Shown: piece after piece, positions 3,384-26,993 of the stretch | Numbering within the stretch: the first letter of the stretch is position 1 | How the letters are laid out: each line of letters begins with the position of its first letter | Virus record (IMG/VR): IMGVR_UViG_3300037313_001148 | Span: 26,670 to 90,669 of that record | Strand: one strand, 5' to 3' | Length of the DNA: 64,000 nucleotides | Origin: a virus | Lineage: Duplodnaviria; Caudoviricetes | The notes under the pieces: generated by a model | Databases searched by the model: none | Told to the model about the DNA's origin: nothing | Seen by the model: only the letters and a program-made list of their open reading frames with translations | Program-made: the position numbers and the translations under genes

Positions 3384-3709
3384 AGTTATTTCAATGGCGA
3401 GAAATTGAGGCTGCCGTCGATTACGCTGCTCAAGGTGGCCAAGCACTACATATTCACAATTTCATAATTGATCGCGACAAGGCTCCCGCCTGTTTCAAGC
3501 GGGATGTTGACGCCGGAAAGCAGATTGCTCACCTGTTCGACCAGGACAAGAATCGGCTCATCGCCACGGCTCGACGATTAGGCGTGCGGGTAATCCTGGT
3601 GGAACGCGAAGGCACCGATGGTATGCACATCGATCTTTGCGGCAAGCCACTCGAGCGTGCCGTCAAGGAATGCGAAATTCCTGGAACTAAACAAGGGAGC
3701 TTATTCTGA
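3380..3709 (+). CDS. conserved phage protein, DUF4031-like
   Basis: HLFDQD...ARRLG...HIDLC pattern recalled for DUF4031-type proteins. Confidence 0.5.
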   Translation: MKLFQWREIEAAVDYAAQGGQALHIHNFIIDRDKAPACFKRDVDAGKQIAHLFDQDKNRLIATARRLGVRVILVEREGTDGMHIDLCGKPLERAVKECEIPGTKQGSLF

Positions 3710-4146
3710 TGGGACTTCCGGAATCCACTGACGATCTGACCCCGGACAATCCTCGCCGCCACATTCCCAATTGGACTGTCACTGATCCTCACGAGTGGGC
3801 TAAGAAATTTGCCGCCTGGATTTCGTATTGTCTTGGCGAGTTCACTTCTCATCGTTTCTGGGAAAATGATTACGCCGAGTGGTTTGAGATGGCGATCTTT
3901 TCCGGGAAGGAATCTTATCGGCTGGAGAAGTACCCGTTAAAAACAGGAACACTTGAAGAAGTTATCAAGGGACGACGTTTCGCGGTCCTGCAACGTAAGT
4001 CATGGACGGACAAAAGAATCTTTGTTATCTATTTTGATGGAAACTGGAACGTCAAAATGGGAAGCGACGGAAGTCAAATCACCACTCTGACCAAAATTGA
4101 AGATATCTTGGCGGATGACTGGGAGCACGTTACCCTGCCGGCCTGA
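3709..4146 (+). CDS. protein with C-terminal DUF2829/Tad2-like domain
   Basis: C-terminus ...LQRKSW...IEDILADDWEHV resembles the DUF2829 RxxW...DxLAxDW signature. Confidence 0.5.
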   Translation: MGLPESTDDLTPDNPRRHIPNWTVTDPHEWAKKFAAWISYCLGEFTSHRFWENDYAEWFEMAIFSGKESYRLEKYPLKTGTLEEVIKGRRFAVLQRKSWTDKRIFVIYFDGNWNVKMGSDGSQITTLTKIEDILADDWEHVTLPA

Positions 4147-4378
4147 TTTTCAGGATTTCTCTTGCCTTCCCCTGCTTTCCCTGCTAGGATCTGGCGACCC
4201 GGAGGCTCCACGATGCTTTTTGCCCTCCTTTTTCTGCCACCCCTGATCGTTCTTGGGGTAATGGTAGAAATCGTCTGCCGCATCCAAGACACAGAAACAA
4301 AAGCATCCGAATATATAAACAGCAACCTCCGGATCGACCAACCTCATTCCCGGAACGTCCAACCAGAAGGAATTCGGC

Positions 4379-5119
4379 ATGTCTTTGAACGATGAGAACG
4401 TTATCTGCGTATCCACGCAAGTTCTCGAGACGGCCCTTAAGAGCTTGACTGGCTGGGGGCGATTCAAGGACCAGCGTGATTCGTCCTTTTACCCATCCGA
4501 TCAGATTCCGCTCTATCAAGTCCTGAACATCTTTAACTACACCGAGTCTCGTTCTCCGATTGTCCTGCCTCGATCGGAAGCCGAGACTCACAAGTATTTC
4601 CGTCACCTGATCGCCTACAATGTTCTATCAGTAAATGGACAGATCTTCAACTATCGACGTGGCAAGGCTGGCTCTGAAGGCCGGCTTCATGATCTCCGTT
4701 CTCTGGGGATTGGGGGTCACGTCAACGACGAGGATTGTGAAGGGCCGCTCACGGCTGACAAGCTGTTTAATGCGGTCCTGCGTGAAATTCAAGAAGAGAT
4801 GTTGATTCTTGGATACAATCATTGCGGGCCTGAAAACCTGCGATACTCTCATACGGTCAACTATCGCGGCCTGATCGTGGATTCATCCAACGAGGTTGGC
4901 AAAGTTCACGTCGGAGTTGTCTACGAATTCTCATACTTCTTCCCATTGCAGACCATTTTTAGCGCCTCCAATTTGTTTGGTTCGCGGGACCACGGGCTAG
5001 AAGACGGCAAGTTCTCCGATTTCCCTTCACTGTCCTCTCCAGAGAACAAAGAAACATATGAATCCTGGTCAAAAATCCTTATTAATGCAATGAGGGTGCC
5101 GGTGCCAACCCTCTTCTGA
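4379..5119 (+). CDS. NUDIX-family phosphoesterase (COG4112/YmaB-like)
   Basis: RHLIAY...YRRGKAGSEGRLHDLRSLGIGGHVND...LREIQEE. Confidence 0.8.
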   Translation: MSLNDENVICVSTQVLETALKSLTGWGRFKDQRDSSFYPSDQIPLYQVLNIFNYTESRSPIVLPRSEAETHKYFRHLIAYNVLSVNGQIFNYRRGKAGSEGRLHDLRSLGIGGHVNDEDCEGPLTADKLFNAVLREIQEEMLILGYNHCGPENLRYSHTVNYRGLIVDSSNEVGKVHVGVVYEFSYFFPLQTIFSASNLFGSRDHGLEDGKFSDFPSLSSPENKETYESWSKILINAMRVPVPTLF

Positions 5120-5155
5120 GAGACACCAGTGTCATCCCGATCACCTGGAGACGTA

Positions 5156-5422
5156 ATGAGGTTCCGTAAAAAGCCAGTCGTGATTGAGGCGATACAGTGG
5201 ACTGGATACAACATTATGGACGTGATGACGTTCATGGCTCCAGTTGAACCAGTCCACATGTCTGGCTTCGCAAATTCTGATGAGATCATCGGCATCGACA
5301 CGCTGGAAGGCCGCATGACTGCGAAGCGTGGCGACTGGATTATCAAGGGCGTGAAGGGCGAGTTCTACCCGTGCAAAGACGATATTTTCAGGGCGACATA
5401 CGATCCAGTTGATTATGAATAA
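5156..5422 (+). CDS. widespread conserved phage protein (RKKPVVIEA...TLEG...GDWIIKGVKGEFYPC family)
   Basis: Recognisable conserved phage sequence; ATG 5156 with GGAG SD. Confidence 0.8.
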   Translation: MRFRKKPVVIEAIQWTGYNIMDVMTFMAPVEPVHMSGFANSDEIIGIDTLEGRMTAKRGDWIIKGVKGEFYPCKDDIFRATYDPVDYE

Positions 5423-5435
5423 GTTCAAAGCGAAC

Positions 5436-5512
5436 ACGCTTTGTAAGCCGTGAGTGGAAGCGTGAACCTGGCTACTGTTTGTTCTCCTTTCAGTGGCCAG
5501 GGTTAACCACGG
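5436..5512 (+). ncRNA. putative pseudoknotted RNA motif, copy A
   Basis: Stem cacgctt/aagcgtg enclosing gtaagccgtgagtg, then a long hairpin, then ggttaaccacgg; same architecture as 6021-6102 with different stem sequences. Confidence 0.6.
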
Positions 5513-5531
5513 TGGGTTTGAGCTTGATTTG

Positions 5532-5565
5532 AAGGCCGGGGAGTTTCTTCGGCTCCCCGGCCTTC
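5532..5565 (+). terminator. GC-rich terminator-like hairpin
   Basis: aaggccggggag-loop-ctccccggcctt; weak U tract. Confidence 0.6.
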
Positions 5566-5604
5566 CTTAAGACATCCAACGTAAACACAATTCAGGAGAT
5601 AATC

Positions 5605-5973
5605 ATGGGACGAGAATTAACCTCACATAAAGTGGGCGACCTGAATGATGTGCTCAAGATCGAAGTTCTGGACAAACCTGGCCCCGGCGGCGCAAATCAT
5701 AGCTATATGATTACGCCAACCATCGGAAACGCGGTGGGTCTAAAGATCGATTTTCAGAATGGGCCTCTAAAGGAAACGATCTACCCAAACGGGTTGACCA
5801 TCGAATCTCTTCTGGCTATCGCTGAGGATCGACTCAAGGGCTTTCAGTCTGGACCTTTCGCCTGTCGGGAAAATGCCTTAGCATTGACTCATATTCAGAA
5901 ATCAATGAATTGGCTTCACCATAGGACACGCGACAGATTGCAGCGTGGTGTCGAAGGCACGAATCAAGCCTAG
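5605..5973 (+). CDS. tad1: Thoeris anti-defence sponge protein Tad1 homolog
   Basis: GPGGANHSY, FQNGP, DRLKGFQSGPFACRENALALTH, RGVEGT match the Tad1 sequence pattern along the full length; AGGAG SD. Confidence 0.85.
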   Translation: MGRELTSHKVGDLNDVLKIEVLDKPGPGGANHSYMITPTIGNAVGLKIDFQNGPLKETIYPNGLTIESLLAIAEDRLKGFQSGPFACRENALALTHIQKSMNWLHHRTRDRLQRGVEGTNQA

Positions 5974-6020
5974 GATATCCAAGCACATTAATGTATAAGC
6001 AATCGTAAATATTTAGATAC

Positions 6021-6102
6021 ACACAGGGTAAGCCGTGAGTGCCTGTGTTTACTTGGCTTCAGGATTCTCCGCTCATCACCTGGAGTTCAAGGTTAACCAC
6101 GG
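6021..6102 (+). ncRNA. putative pseudoknotted RNA motif, copy B
   Basis: Stem acacagg/cctgtgt enclosing gtaagccgtgagtg, hairpin cttggcttcagg/cctggagttcaag, then ggttaaccacgg. Confidence 0.6.
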
Positions 6103-6134
6103 CCGATCACTCGGAGTTGTCTCCAGTCGGAGTA

Positions 6135-6168
6135 GGGCCGGAAGGCATCACACTTCCGGCCTTACTCT
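6135..6168 (+). terminator. terminator-like hairpin
   Basis: ggccggaag-loop-cttccggcc followed by ttactcttt. Confidence 0.6.
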
Positions 6169-6184
6169 TTGCCAAGGATCCATC

Positions 6185-6874
6185 ATGATTACTCGAGTTC
6201 TTGCTGTCCCCGTGATTGTCTCTGAGGGTCGGATCACATTTCACACCGCTTACATTGAAACAGGTGTAAATAATTGCGTCTTATCTTTGGTTCCCGGTGA
6301 ACCTGTCATCATCTACCTTGATCCATCAAAAGAACCACAATTCTCCAAGCATCCGCAAGGAGGCTGGGTTTCTCCTGTCTGGGACCGCCTGGCGGAAGCT
6401 GAAGCGGCGGAAACAGAGATTGATTATATTCACATTCATTGCCGTTGCCACAAGCGGGAAACTCTGACCGGGGACGACCTATATTCCCTCGAGCAGACCG
6501 GCCACACGGCGGATTGCCGCCATGGCATGCCTGTCTCCGGCTCACCCATCAACAAATTATTTCCCAGTGCTGCGAATGTTCTGACACAAGCCCGCAACAC
6601 TCCCCTTCCTCCGTCGTCCCCTTCGTCGGCGAAGCCGACGACAGACGCACAGAACCCGATGAACGCGATCGCCAAGTGGCTGAACGGAACATGTGGAAGT
6701 ATTCAGGATGCGTGTAAAGAGCTTGGTCTGGCCGTCGAAACTGATTCGACAAGAGATATTCTCAAATCAGAATACCATTTCATGCCTTGTACTGGTTGCG
6801 CGACGTGGGGATTCTTCCAGAACTCAACCAATCCCATGTGTCGCGCCTGTGCTGCGGAAGTAGAATCAGCTTGA
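6185..6874 (+). CDS. hypothetical protein with Cys/His motifs and an in-frame hairpin element
   Basis: Probable ATG 6185; HCRCH, CTGC...CRAC; contains repeat copy 2. Confidence 0.65.
   Translation: MITRVLAVPVIVSEGRITFHTAYIETGVNNCVLSLVPGEPVIIYLDPSKEPQFSKHPQGGWVSPVWDRLAEAEAAETEIDYIHIHCRCHKRETLTGDDLYSLEQTGHTADCRHGMPVSGSPINKLFPSAANVLTQARNTPLPPSSPSSAKPTTDAQNPMNAIAKWLNGTCGSIQDACKELGLAVETDSTRDILKSEYHFMPCTGCATWGFFQNSTNPMCRACAAEVESA
6595..6641 (+). repeat. hairpin element copy 2
   Basis: caacactccccttcctccgtcgtcccct followed by tcgtcggc-GAA-gccgacga. Confidence 0.9.
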
Positions 6875-6953
6875 CATCTTTACCTCCTTATTAACAAACA
6901 TTAACCAGACAGTTACGCTTGTCTTGACGCAGTATCACGATTTCCCATAAAAT
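6872..6953 (+). promoter_or_regulatory. putative promoter(s) for the terminase/late operon
   Basis: TTGACA near 6872; TTGACG (6924) with TAAAAT (6948). Confidence 0.45.
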
Positions 6954-6958
6954 CTCTC

Positions 6959-8635
6959 TTGAGAAATCAAGGGGGTTTTTCTTTGAGCGTTGCAACTTTT
7001 CCGATCCCTGGCTCCTCTTACCATGATCTCGCCATCAAGGCTGAGCGGTGTCGGCGATCGCTCGCCTACTTCACGCGAACCTTCTGGGATGAGATTGTCC
7101 CCGAGAAACTAACCTGGAATTGGCACATGGATGCCGTGTGCGATCATCTCCAGGCTGTTTCCCAAGGATCAATACAACGACTTATAATCAATATTCCCCC
7201 TGGATCCGCGAAGTCTACGTTAGTAAGTGTGATGTGGCCTGCATGGGAATGGATCGACCGGCCGGGTGAGCAATCTCTTTTTGGTTCATATGACGAGAAG
7301 CTTGCCCTTCGTGACTCGGTGCGCTGCCGCAAGGTCTTCGATTCTGAGCGATACCGGACGATCTTCCAGCCGGACTGGAAGATGGCAAAAGACCAAAATG
7401 CGAAAGGTTTCTACACTAACACGGCCAACGGGAATCGTTACACGTTCGGTCTGAACTCCTCCGGCAAGATGGGCTGGCGCGGAAACAAGGTTGTCCTGGA
7501 CGATCCTAACGATATCAAGGCTCGGTTTGACACGCGGATCAAGGCGGATGCCTGGGACGTGTTCGCCAGCGTGCTTCAGACCCGCGTCAACGACCTGCCG
7601 ACCGCGAAATTTCTGATTGTCCAGCAGAGAACATCTTTTGATGATTTCACTGGCCGAATTCATGACATGGAATCCGACCCCGAAGTCATGGCGGTAATGG
7701 AGAAGATCGGCAAATGGGAAACGGTCGTGATTCCGGCCGAGTTCGACCCTTCCCGGCGGTTCTTCACGAGCATTGGTTGGACTGACCCTCGCAAGGAAGC
7801 GGGGGAGAACTTCTTCCCCAAAAAGTACCCCGACGAATCTCTCGAGGGAATGAGGCTAGTCCTTGGAGACGAAGGGTACGAGGGTCAGTTCAACCAATCC
7901 CCGGCTCCCGCCGGAGGGCAAAGATTATCGCGTGATCTCTTCTGCAAGTATAAGCGAGTTTCCGGCGACATCATCGAGCTTACCAACAAATTCGGCAACA
8001 AATCTATCATCAAGCTTGGATTATGCTGGTCGTTCGTCTCGGTAGATCTCGCCGCCTCTGAGAAGCAAACAGCCGACTACACCGCATTTTCGGTCTGGGC
8101 CGTCACGCCTACCTATGATATGATCCTTCTCAATGTTGTTAATGAAAGAATGGGAGAACCTAAGATCATTGAGAAGGCTATTGCACTACACGCCTTTACT
8201 GGATATAACGGGCGGAAGCATCTTGCCTTTGTCGTTGAAGACAACGGTTTAGGACTGCCGATTGCTCAGAGCATGGCCAAACATGGACTTCCGGTCATGC
8301 AAGTCCATATTCATAGGACTGACAAGCTTGTGCGGTCGGCAACCGCCGTGATTCGCGCCAATGCCGGCGGGATCTACCTTCCCGAAGACGGACCAGAGTA
8401 TCCCTGGAAAGAACCCTGGCTTCGTCAACACGAGCGATTCCCTGGAGACGAGCACGACGACATGGTGGATGCGACATCGCTAGCCGCATCGGCTCTCTTC
8501 GACATGGGAATCGCTGGTTTGCATGGCGGGGAGTTCCTGAAGCATTCAAAGAAGAGTGCTCACGAGGTAATGGAGCCTCAGAAACAGGAACTCCCCGCCG
8601 CGACCAAACAAAACAAAAGATTATTTGGCACATGA
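6959..8635 (+). CDS. terL: terminase large subunit
   Basis: RLIINIPPGSAKS Walker A, VVLDDP Walker B, C-terminal nuclease HDDMVDATS; start may be TTG 6983. Confidence 0.95.
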   Translation: MRNQGGFSLSVATFPIPGSSYHDLAIKAERCRRSLAYFTRTFWDEIVPEKLTWNWHMDAVCDHLQAVSQGSIQRLIINIPPGSAKSTLVSVMWPAWEWIDRPGEQSLFGSYDEKLALRDSVRCRKVFDSERYRTIFQPDWKMAKDQNAKGFYTNTANGNRYTFGLNSSGKMGWRGNKVVLDDPNDIKARFDTRIKADAWDVFASVLQTRVNDLPTAKFLIVQQRTSFDDFTGRIHDMESDPEVMAVMEKIGKWETVVIPAEFDPSRRFFTSIGWTDPRKEAGENFFPKKYPDESLEGMRLVLGDEGYEGQFNQSPAPAGGQRLSRDLFCKYKRVSGDIIELTNKFGNKSIIKLGLCWSFVSVDLAASEKQTADYTAFSVWAVTPTYDMILLNVVNERMGEPKIIEKAIALHAFTGYNGRKHLAFVVEDNGLGLPIAQSMAKHGLPVMQVHIHRTDKLVRSATAVIRANAGGIYLPEDGPEYPWKEPWLRQHERFPGDEHDDMVDATSLAASALFDMGIAGLHGGEFLKHSKKSAHEVMEPQKQELPAATKQNKRLFGT

Positions 8636-25219: not shown

Positions 25220-26993
25220 CCAGAACGAAAACGCGCTCCTCCAGGCCATCGAGCGACTTCGCCAGTCGATCGCTGGCCTGGCGGGCAATTTCCTTGGCGG
25301 AATTGGGGGAACCCAGTCTCAGTCTGGTACTCAGCAATTCTCTGTAACCCAGACAATCACTAAAGCATTCTCTGATGCATTAAAAAAAGCATTTTCTCAA
25401 CTCTCATCTCAAAACCAAAATCAGCAACAAACATATCAAAACAACAACTACTCTCCAGGATTTTTCAGCCGGCTTTTTGGGAAGAATTCCGGCAGCCCAT
25501 CCGGAACCCCCTTTGCTCCTGGACAGAATTCCAATCAGTCAACTCTCCCGTCTCTGAGATCCCAGGCAGGGTCAATCACGGGAAATATTTTCGGAAAACT
25601 ATCCTCACATATCATTGAGTCTCTTCCTGCCTTCGGAAAGCTCCGCAACGAAGTCTTATCTACCACGGAGTTTTTCCGCAAATTCCGTCAATCCAAGGCA
25701 ACAGCGGCTCAACTTGCAACAACGTCGCCACTTGGAGAAGTCGGCCTCCAGAAACTCCGCGAGTTCGCCAAGAATCCCTTTCTTCGGCCATCTCAGCGTC
25801 ATCAGATTGAGACTCAGGTTGATCTCGCCACCTTTCAGGCTCGTCAGGCAGCCAAGCTCCAAAAAATTGCCGTGCGTGCCCAGGCCGACACGGCTCAGGC
25901 CGGCGAAGAATACCGCGAATCTCTTACCGCAGAATCAACAGCTTCAAATATTCTGAAAAGAAGGCAGGTTCAACAGGCCCGCGCATTCAGGGCCAGAGAT
26001 TCTATTTATCAACAGTATCGCCATATGTTAAATCAGCATATGGGATATACGGCCGGAACCTCCCCTTACGGTCCTCATCTTGCGGCTCTCAGGGCGCGTC
26101 ACAGGCAAGCCAGTCGGGTAGCCAATCGGACGGCAACGCAGTACCGGAAGGCAGCTCAAACATTCCGTGCGGCTCAAGCGAACGTTGCGACCAGATACCA
26201 GAACTTTCGATCCGTTGCGAATCGCGGAGCAGCCGCGAAGGTTGCGGCTCGAGGGGCAGCCCAGGCCGCACGCAGCACAGCACAAACTGCCCAGTCCACC
26301 GCCGCAGCAGCAGCCGGATCGGTTGCCGTGCGTGCCCTTGGTGCCGCCGCCGGATCGGCTGTTGCTGGTCTCTCACTGATGGTTTCTTCTATTTCGGCTG
26401 CCCGGTCTTCTCTCCTGTCTTTCGCGGAATCGACCAACGAAAATAATCGAGAATTCCAGGCATATTCAGGTAAACTTTCTCAGGCATTTGCACGTCTTGA
26501 ATTTGGTAACATTCGTCGGAACTTCGCTATTGCCGGTGGGACAGAAAATACGTCAACCGCCCTGGTTGATGCAATTAATCGAATGAGAGATAATCAAGTT
26601 GAATTAAATATAAGTATCAGGAATATTGCTAATACATCTGCAATTTTAACAGCAGGCGCTGTCGGAGGATTCGATAAGTCTCTCGGGAAGCTGACAAGTC
26701 AGATTAACCGGATCATTCAAGGCTCTGGGATTGGCGGCGCAGGTGGCGTGATCGAATCGCTTACCGAAAAATTTACTGACCAATTATTGTTACCACTTCA
26801 GGCTCTCGTTGACTTGGTTGCCTGGTTCTTTCCGGCAGTCAAAGGCGATCCCGGAAAGATGCTTCCTGCTGATGCCCTTGCAAACCAATGGGCCAAAAAT
26901 GCGGCTGACCGTGGCGCCGGGATTCGTGATCCTCGCGGCCCTCTGCCTGGTTTTGGAGAGATCGGAAAGGGACCGCGAAGGCACGGACCTTGA
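25203..26993 (+). CDS. tape measure protein
   Basis: Ala/Gln/Arg-rich helical protein of ~597 aa directly after G/GT. Confidence 0.8.
   Translation: MVNGTNQNENALLQAIERLRQSIAGLAGNFLGGIGGTQSQSGTQQFSVTQTITKAFSDALKKAFSQLSSQNQNQQQTYQNNNYSPGFFSRLFGKNSGSPSGTPFAPGQNSNQSTLPSLRSQAGSITGNIFGKLSSHIIESLPAFGKLRNEVLSTTEFFRKFRQSKATAAQLATTSPLGEVGLQKLREFAKNPFLRPSQRHQIETQVDLATFQARQAAKLQKIAVRAQADTAQAGEEYRESLTAESTASNILKRRQVQQARAFRARDSIYQQYRHMLNQHMGYTAGTSPYGPHLAALRARHRQASRVANRTATQYRKAAQTFRAAQANVATRYQNFRSVANRGAAAKVAARGAAQAARSTAQTAQSTAAAAAGSVAVRALGAAAGSAVAGLSLMVSSISAARSSLLSFAESTNENNREFQAYSGKLSQAFARLEFGNIRRNFAIAGGTENTSTALVDAINRMRDNQVELNISIRNIANTSAILTAGAVGGFDKSLGKLTSQINRIIQGSGIGGAGGVIESLTEKFTDQLLLPLQALVDLVAWFFPAVKGDPGKMLPADALANQWAKNAADRGAGIRDPRGPLPGFGEIGKGPRRHGP

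Follow-up and report, generated by a model that had tools for sequence, protein, structure and literature searches.

A pseudoknot RNA at gene ends of phages and prophages, probably related to Proteo-phage-1

Proteo-phage-1 (Rfam RF03044) is an orphan RNA family whose motif reportedly comes from the 2017 set of Weinberg et al. The Rfam entry types it as "Gene; sRNA" (small RNA) and assigns no function to it. Its consensus consists of an upstream hairpin, then cGcgG-AUaAGCCGGuuAGUG-CcgCg, then AAaAACaCCGGCAGCC. Here we describe a pseudoknot RNA of similar layout that occurs twice in 64,000 nucleotides (nt) of a virus genome (Duplodnaviria; Caudoviricetes), namely positions 26,670 to 90,669 of IMG/VR record IMGVR_UViG_3300037313_001148. 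This whole stretch is referred to as the window, and positions are counted from its first letter.

Other described RNAs share parts of this architecture. Riboswitches of the preQ1-II and SAM-II types are H-type pseudoknots with an embedded hairpin and conserved loop bases. The window RNA resembles the preQ1-II type in its stem 1, a short loop 1 in the deep groove of stem 2, a one-nt junction, and a hairpin embedded in loop 3, but it has no Rfam match of this kind, its 3' strand does not overlap a ribosome-binding site or terminator, and it lacks a consistent regulated gene. The put elements of HK022 (putL and putR) are about 70 nt long, form two stem-loops in a V without a pseudoknot, and are RNA-only processive antiterminators (PMC9378689). 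They directly follow early promoters, and only about ten such sequences are known (PMC9378689). Like put, the window RNA is present in two copies in its phage and might act as nascent RNA upstream of terminators; unlike put, with which it shares no sequence similarity, it lies behind stop codons and, in some relatives, faces a convergent gene. Neither window copy forms a V of two stem-loops with an early promoter just upstream. The coremin/xrRNA-C element of RNA viruses is likewise a compact H-type pseudoknot, in which the hairpin loop, YGAD, has 4-6 nt and the pseudoknot, with its CUAC spacer, about 3 bp (PMC10321173), whereas the window family has a loop of 12-14 nt, a second helix of 7 bp, and other conserved letters, and so does not conform to coremin. 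Set against the published descriptions, neither the put and canT antiterminators nor the coremin pseudoknot resembles the window RNA in architecture.

The exact 14-mer GTAAGCCGTGAGTG is found at positions 5443-5456 and 6028-6041 of the window, and the exact 12-mer GGTTAACCACGG at 5501-5512 and 6091-6102, all on the + strand. There is no third copy of this pair in the window or in the entire 90.7-kb virus record; a site at 4746-4759 on the - strand matches the 14-mer with two mismatches, lacks the 3' partner, and was not counted as a copy. In each copy the 14-mer is the loop of a stem, P1, whose two strands are complementary within the copy and unlike in sequence between the copies (CACGCUUU/GAAGCGUG at 5435-5442/5457-5464 and ACACAGG/CCUGUGU at 6021-6027/6042-6048). 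A variable hairpin follows P1, at 5467-5501 in copy 1 and 6053-6090 in copy 2, with unrelated sequences in the two predicted folds. The window loop reads GUAAG-CCGUG-A-GU-G, and in both copies the 3' strand ACCACGG is complementary to its CCGUG-A-GU portion, giving a second helix (S2) of 7 bp with one bulged A. All parts of the preliminary description that concerned this layout, two copies with different P1 stems, the same loop, a variable hairpin, and the same 3' element, were borne out on the + strand. The RNA features are listed below; the covariance model was built from relatives, and z scores are against shuffled sequence.

5435-5512, + strand: copy 1 of the pseudoknot RNA; family covariance model, 48.3 bits, E 9e-14
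5443-5456, + strand: copy 1 loop, exact 14-mer
5448-5455, + strand: copy 1 S2 5' strand (CCGUG-A-GU), pairing with 5506-5512, A5453 bulged; the same pairs covary in relatives
5467-5501, + strand: copy 1 embedded hairpin in loop 3, 11 bp (predicted fold); pyrimidine run CUCCUUU at 5484-5490 in the hairpin loop
5506-5512, + strand: copy 1 3' pseudoknot strand ACCACGG (by complementarity)
5531-5565, + strand: G+C hairpin 3' of copy 1, 13 bp (predicted fold); z -4.4 for 5430-5570; no U-run
6021-6102, + strand: copy 2 of the pseudoknot RNA; family covariance model, 52.5 bits, E 4e-15
6028-6041, + strand: copy 2 loop, exact 14-mer
6053-6090, + strand: copy 2 embedded hairpin (predicted fold)
6096-6102, + strand: copy 2 3' pseudoknot strand (by complementarity)
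6103-6130, + strand: small hairpin abutting the copy 2 knot, CCGA...UCGG (predicted fold)
6130-6167, + strand: G+C hairpin 3' of copy 2, 15 bp, then UUUG (predicted fold, z -3.7); terminator-like

The pseudoknot is backed by independent compensatory changes. To avoid the bias of exact-match searches, relatives were collected in scans in which a single loop base was changed and its presumed partner was left as N. With loop base G8 changed, all seven matches carried G->A together with C->U in the partner, which converts a G-C into an A-U pair. All 20 matches with a changed C7 were compensated (C->A with G->U, or C->U with G->A), as were the three with a changed U13, each of which had U->A with A->U. 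The U13-A covariation lengthens the helix by GU/AC across the bulged A. A U9->C change was seen once, in another scan (locus L155; loci are denoted by L and a number), with A->G in the partner, and a U-G pair is present at this position in six aligned sequences. The scan yielded no variants of G10, and the G10-C pair is thus neither supported nor contradicted. Compensatory changes were found at four of the seven S2 pairs. In a 37-sequence alignment, S2 was 99.6% paired, with both-side changes at three pairs, and all controls were lower. Since the G-U pairs would turn into A-C mismatches on the opposite strand, the RNA is read from the + strand.

P1 covaries freely. Examples are CGCAUCCC/GGGAUGCG, GCGACU/AGUCGC, GGGGC/GCCCC, and AAGG/CCUU, among others, and a metagenome scan in which only CCGUGAGUG and AACCACGGCAG were fixed gave at least 35 distinct P1 sequences among the matches listed. 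Loop 1 in the listed matches of that scan reads AAG, CAAG, UAAG, GUAAG, GUUAG, GUCAG, or CUAG, only the AG before the helix being constant, and the loop of the family can be written as N(0-3)-AG-CCGUG-A-GU-G. Loop 3 can be as short as about 5 nt or longer than 130 nt, often contains hairpins, and has an A at its end. In the long forms, an extra covarying helix encloses the 3' strand (CUCUGAAU/AUUCAGAG, CUCUUU/AAAGAG, CUCUCC/GGAGAG). These patterns define a classical H-type pseudoknot with a P1 of 2-8 bp, a loop 1 of 3-5 nt, an S2 of 7 bp plus a bulged A, and a one-base G junction. A minimal form of the family, of about 30-35 nt, is defined, and natural variants are available for compensatory-mutation tests.

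These results also bear on what had been proposed for this DNA. The CCGUG/CACGG pseudoknot proposed earlier covaries in relatives, and its helix proved longer, at 7 bp with a bulged A. A lack of covariation in homologs had been named as grounds for giving up the motif; both P1 and S2 covary. The loop described as invariant is indeed identical in the two window copies, but its first three bases vary across the family.

In some classes (L079:4360-4420, L014:3345-3400, L012, and L082), a hairpin just 5' of the loop and a possible longer P1 have a strand in common, the 3' strand of the hairpin: GCGCCC can pair with an upstream GGGCGC or a downstream GGGGGCG, and the two folds would be mutually exclusive.

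The layout resembles that of Proteo-phage-1, in which, after an optional upstream hairpin, a stem of 5 bp encloses the 14-15-nt loop AUaAGCCGGuuAGUG and is joined by a short linker to the tail AAaAACaCCGGCAGCC. The counterparts of this loop and tail in the window family are (G)UAAGCCGUG-AGUG and AAACCACGG(CAG). A stem enclosing a 14-15-nt loop with UaAGCCG...AGUG, the defining arrangement of RF03044, is present in both window copies as CACGCUUU-GUAAGCCGUGAGUG-GAAGCGUG and ACACAGG-GUAAGCCGUGAGUG-CCUGUGU. Loop and tail are complementary in both families, through GCCGG/CCGGC in Proteo-phage-1 and CCGUG/CACGG in the window family, plus GU/AC. The window tail UUAACCACGG is complementary to its own loop and continues with UGG or CCG rather than with the CAGC of RF03044; in most relatives the tail is AAACCACGGCAGC. 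A hairpin directly 5' of the loop-bearing stem, another trait of RF03044, is absent at both window copies and present in the relatives L012, L014, L079, L082, L360, and L282. The model lines of RF03044 mark no pseudoknot; the Rfam description may already mention a pseudoknot or a role.

Against the RF03044 model, relatives of the window RNA scored 38.6, 33.4, 31.6, 28.3, 27.7, and 24.9 bits. The gathering score is 42 bits, and no sequence studied reaches it. The window copies themselves gave no match to the model at the gathering score, nor at E values up to 10 over positions 5300-6300. No other Rfam family was found in the window or in 36 motif-bearing loci searched, tRNAs excepted. Several features set the window RNA apart from Proteo-phage-1: the pseudoknot helix is CCGUG/CACGG in the window versus CCGG/CCGG in the model; the window copies have a 35-38-nt hairpin in loop 3, no upstream hairpin, and no CAG after the tail; and the window family reaches beyond Proteobacteria into Actinomycetota and Bacillota. 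Judging by the shared layout and letters, the window elements appear to be divergent relatives of Proteo-phage-1 and not members by Rfam's criterion, and the family as a whole a divergent, much broader branch of it. The motif had been called unrecognised in the preliminary description, which does not hold for the relatives, given their scores of 24.9-38.6 bits, the same layout, and most of the conserved letters. The Rfam search that it advised left the window copies unmatched up to an E value of 10 and matched relatives below threshold.

A search of 156 bacterial genomes with the RF03044 model returned only sub-threshold, coding-like matches and no genuine seed-type member to align. A literature search with the loop sequence string gave nothing relevant, and Proteo-phage-1 appeared in no main text searched.

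We then evaluated how widespread the RNA is. The exact 14-mer was found in at least 118 loci in IMG/VR, 75 of which carry AACCRCG 4-134 nt downstream, an element that the scan did not require. A control scan of IMG/VR with one letter of the 14-mer changed gave 79 matches, only one of which had P1 and the 3' motif. About 80 matches is therefore the level expected by chance for a 14-mer in this database, and in the chance matches that lack the 3' motif, flanking pairing is mostly absent. After removal of near-duplicates, the matches listed comprise about 38 classes with the exact loop, and members whose loop starts differently are far more numerous; the class counts given below (38, 39, or 30) refer to these de-duplicated exact-14-mer loci. 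True copies in a prokaryote scan of one genome per species came from Collinsella, an Acutalibacteraceae genome, a Rhodocyclaceae genome, Thiodictyon, Solirubrobacterales, and a proteobacterium. The motif is thus present in phage contigs and prophages of at least three bacterial phyla (Pseudomonadota, Actinomycetota, and Bacillota), with Collinsella aerofaciens as a cultured host, and each phage carries one or two copies. If the kinship holds, Proteo-phage-1 would be the visible tip of a much larger phage and prophage family in these phyla. That one RNA core recurs in phages whose hosts differ so much suggests a function linked to a basic aspect of phage gene expression.

No class-level DNA match to five class representatives was found in cultured phages, and the motif was absent from the sequence searched in distant terminase relatives of the window phage (29-33% identity). 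Six or seven matches of the prokaryote scan were excluded because they encode the aminoacyl-tRNA synthetase motif GWDTHGLP on the opposite strand and are not RNA. The reverse complement of the 14-mer encodes this class-I synthetase motif, which accounts for the false positives L200, L208, L213, L215, L216, and L218 (Patescibacteria and others). Weak second model matches in other phages (L097, L011, and others) turned out to be coding sequence (MSTKRTDNHGS...).

Members of the family sit at gene ends, often by DNA-packaging genes or tRNA arrays. Thirty classes have an upstream reading frame in the same direction, and in 24 of these its stop codon ends 3-34 nt ahead of the loop. In most classes, 0-4 nt separate the knot from the start of a hairpin. 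The genes upstream and downstream vary across the approximately 38 classes and include those for an HNH nuclease, an SSB-like protein, unassigned proteins, and tRNAs. The large terminase, within about 4 kb of the motif in at least 16 of 38 classes, is the sole recurrent neighbor family, and an all-against-all comparison of the neighboring open reading frames (ORFs) revealed no other shared protein. These terminases belong to two families, the phrog_2 and phrog_38 types. The terminase gene is downstream and co-directional in the window and in L007, L093, L019, L003, L055, and L086, upstream of the motif in L018 and L054, and convergent right behind the RNA's terminator in six classes (L012, L014, L017, L038, L051, and L079). 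In shorter metagenome loci, a terminase is near the motif in 9 of 73. A tRNA array begins about 150 nt after the motif in the Collinsella-phage class, and in L091 a minimal form of the motif lies inside one.

In the window, all genes around the two copies are on the + strand, in the order given below.

5156-5422, + strand: gene for a phrog_419 protein (function not assigned), upstream of copy 1; its stop codon ends 12 nt before P1
5605-5973, + strand: tad1, Thoeris anti-defense 1 homologue (PDB 7UAV/8KBG, E 1.4e-22), between the copies; its stop codon ends 47 nt before P1 of copy 2
6185-6874, + strand: Cys/His-rich ORF, 229 aa, between copy 2 and the large terminase, in the position of a small terminase subunit
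6959-8635, + strand: large terminase subunit (phrog_38, E 1e-64), 857 nt downstream of copy 2

The most enriched 6-mers around the motif are TCCTTT and CCTTTC, found in 10 and 9 of 39 classes, respectively, versus 2% in flanks (p 4e-9). The corresponding UCCUUUC sits in a hairpin loop, that of the embedded hairpin in copy 1 and that of the post-knot hairpin in many other classes, and it is complementary to the Shine-Dalgarno-like GAAAGGA. A second conserved domain follows directly after the knot in many members (L038:1780-1885 on the - strand, L082, L079, L064, L230, and others). It is built in the order CAG, lower stem, upper stem, UCCUUUC loop, upper stem, GUGA(U/C) bulge, lower stem, and a canonical terminator usually comes next; GGTGAT is enriched in 8 of 39 classes (p 4e-5). 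The RF03044 model ends before this domain.

We tentatively favor, with somewhat less than even confidence, the view that the pseudoknot is the conserved core of a 3'-terminal RNA module. Transcription of the upstream gene would produce the knot as the tail of the message, beginning a few bases past the stop codon; the module would end at the hairpin or terminator after the knot and would persist as a compact, nuclease-resistant, stable 3' domain or as a small RNA derived from the 3' untranslated region. In the window phage, the phrog_419 gene and tad1 would each be followed by one module, at the border that separates the accessory/early genes from the packaging genes. The pyrimidine-rich UCCUUUC hairpin loop beside the knot in many members could contact other RNAs or a protein. 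We prefer such a module over a leader because of the fixed position behind a co-directional stop codon, the existence of convergent arrangements, and the lack of any promoter-like site upstream in the window, where no sigma-70-like promoter was found directly upstream of either copy. With a convergent terminase, as in six classes, the RNA cannot be a leader. We also counted as support the hairpin close behind the knot in most classes, the hairpin with a U-run in 20 of 38, the enrichment of UCCUUUC, and the typing of the related Rfam family as an sRNA gene.

Several observations weigh against a 3'-terminal module. Terminators had been thought to follow both window copies; the hairpins at 5531-5565 and 6130-6167 are strong, but neither has a canonical U-run, neither is called by a terminator scan, and they are only terminator-like. 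Across classes, a hairpin with a U-run occurs within 112 nt after the knot in 20 of 38 (53%) versus 37% at control gene ends, a weak excess. No more than about a quarter to a third of classes have the pyrimidine loop. A generic role at 3' ends leaves unexplained both the proximity to terminase genes and tRNA arrays and the restriction to one or two copies per phage. The conserved unpaired bases (the AG of loop 1, the bulged A, the junction G, and the A-rich end of loop 3) are more suggestive of a binding or active site, and a simple 3' cap would not obviously need them. Our limited confidence in the 3' module reflects these unpaired bases, the low copy number, and the proximity to packaging genes and tRNAs, all of which misfit a passive cap.

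Alternatively, the knot could be a cis-acting modifier of elongation: as nascent RNA it would act on RNA polymerase or a Nus factor and alter the outcome at the downstream hairpin, a role we consider unlikely. It would either promote read-through into packaging genes or a tRNA array, in the manner of put and canT, or reinforce termination and thereby insulate an early from a late unit. Phages and mobile elements do have processive antiterminators that consist of RNA alone (PMC9378689, PMC11658703). A hairpin or terminator directly after the knot in nearly all classes would suit this role, as would the terminase or packaging genes that lie co-directionally downstream in the window and at least seven other classes and the tRNA array downstream in two classes, an untranslated stretch that would be exposed to Rho. 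Unpaired bases conserved across phyla would also fit contact with a universally conserved machine. However, six classes face a convergent terminase behind a good bidirectional terminator, where read-through would be useless, and a canonical terminator is present in only about half of the classes. Moreover, the knot is immediately before the hairpin, so that every transcript that reaches the hairpin carries the knot and regulation is not obvious, and there is no likeness to put in sequence or architecture.

More broadly, the knot might be an active RNA of a new class, which seems doubtful to us: a ribozyme, a binder of a host machine (RNA polymerase or elongation factors being the most plausible), or a catcher of tRNA 3' ends. 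A host-machine binder could fix the level of read-through at the edge of the packaging genes and tRNA arrays. Capture of tRNA 3' ends could operate through the loop sequence UG(A)GU, which without its bulged A reads UGGU, the complement of ACCA. If the RNA is active in one of these ways, phages of at least three phyla would share one RNA device, of which Rfam holds a narrow proteobacterial sliver. The sequence GGUAA.CCGU and the CUCCUUU loops had also raised the idea that the RNA mimics helix 45 and the 3' end of 16S rRNA; this was rejected, as the local alignment scores with E. coli rrsH were reached by 456 and 478 of 500 shuffles.

As a new small self-cleaving ribozyme, taken by itself, the RNA would cleave long transcripts of the phage where modules meet and within tRNA arrays, which we regard as improbable. 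The compact pseudoknotted core, conserved unpaired purines, variable peripheral helices, and optional insert are traits of small ribozymes. The hammerhead and HDV-like (theta) ribozymes of phages are reportedly located within or next to tRNA arrays, and the present motif, too, lies between genes and in or beside such arrays. Yet no Rfam ribozyme model matched at E values up to 10 (hammerhead, twister, twister-sister, pistol, hatchet, and HDV-like), and searches around the 36 motif-bearing loci gave no known ribozyme. In topology the fold corresponds to HDV minus P3/L3, with a lone G between the pseudoknot strand and the P1 3' strand, and is not HDV-like; a classical H-type knot with coaxial stems also leaves few candidate scissile sites.

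A ligand-sensing aptamer, acting as a riboswitch or an RNA sponge, is very improbable. An H-type knot with an embedded hairpin and conserved loop bases is a known riboswitch architecture, and the position of one window copy before tad1 had led to the earlier suggestion that the ligand is an immune signaling nucleotide. The gene at 5605-5973 is a true Tad1 homologue, as had been proposed (PDB 7UAV, E 1.4e-22; the match of its product to the Pfam Acb2/Tad1 hairpin family is weak), but Tad1 adjoins the motif only in this window, the neighbors vary, and the terminase alone recurs. For the window, the idea of an RNA that senses immune nucleotides on behalf of tad1 thus loses support. A riboswitch is expected to have a competing expression platform and a consistent class of regulated gene. 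No platform was found to overlap the knot, no gene association other than that with the terminase is consistent, and in the convergent cases there is no gene to regulate. In the members inspected by reading, the post-knot hairpin overlaps the knot by no more than one base, and no alternative pairing between this hairpin and the 3' strand was seen.

We give almost no credence to a DNA-level packaging signal (cos/pac or a terminase-binding site), to which the nearness of terminase genes in either orientation and of HNH nuclease genes in two classes might point, because two interlocked helices, with strand-specific G-U pairs among their base pairs, are maintained by the compensatory changes, the nearby terminases come from different families (phrog_2 and phrog_38 types), and many members, those in tRNA arrays among them, have no terminase nearby in the sequence searched.

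Some further observations concern the surrounding genes. In the window, ORFs 3709-4146 and 4379-5119 matched no Pfam family at an E value of 0.01, and ORF 4379-5119 matched phrog_8902 (function not assigned). The 5156-5422 protein, besides phrog_419, has a weak match to a nucleotide pyrophosphohydrolase phrog. Among the genes in 3709-5973, upstream of the motif, an anti-defense identity is confirmed for Tad1 only. ORF 6185-6874 had no Pfam or PHROG match. Two elements overlap the terminase gene's annotated TTG start at 6959, namely a promoter-like TTGACG-18-TAAAAT (6924-6953) and, with its U-run, a terminator-like hairpin (6954-6975), and the true start may be further downstream. Elsewhere, large phage tRNA arrays of 10-20 tRNAs were found at L084:1135-2214, L099:9089-10025, L206:7405-7931, and L091:4295-11488. 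Finally, L363:1361-1478 (- strand) is a 3' fragment of transfer-messenger RNA (63.5 bits) about 400 nt from the family member at L363:856-945, as expected for a prophage integrated at ssrA, and places the RNA near the prophage end.

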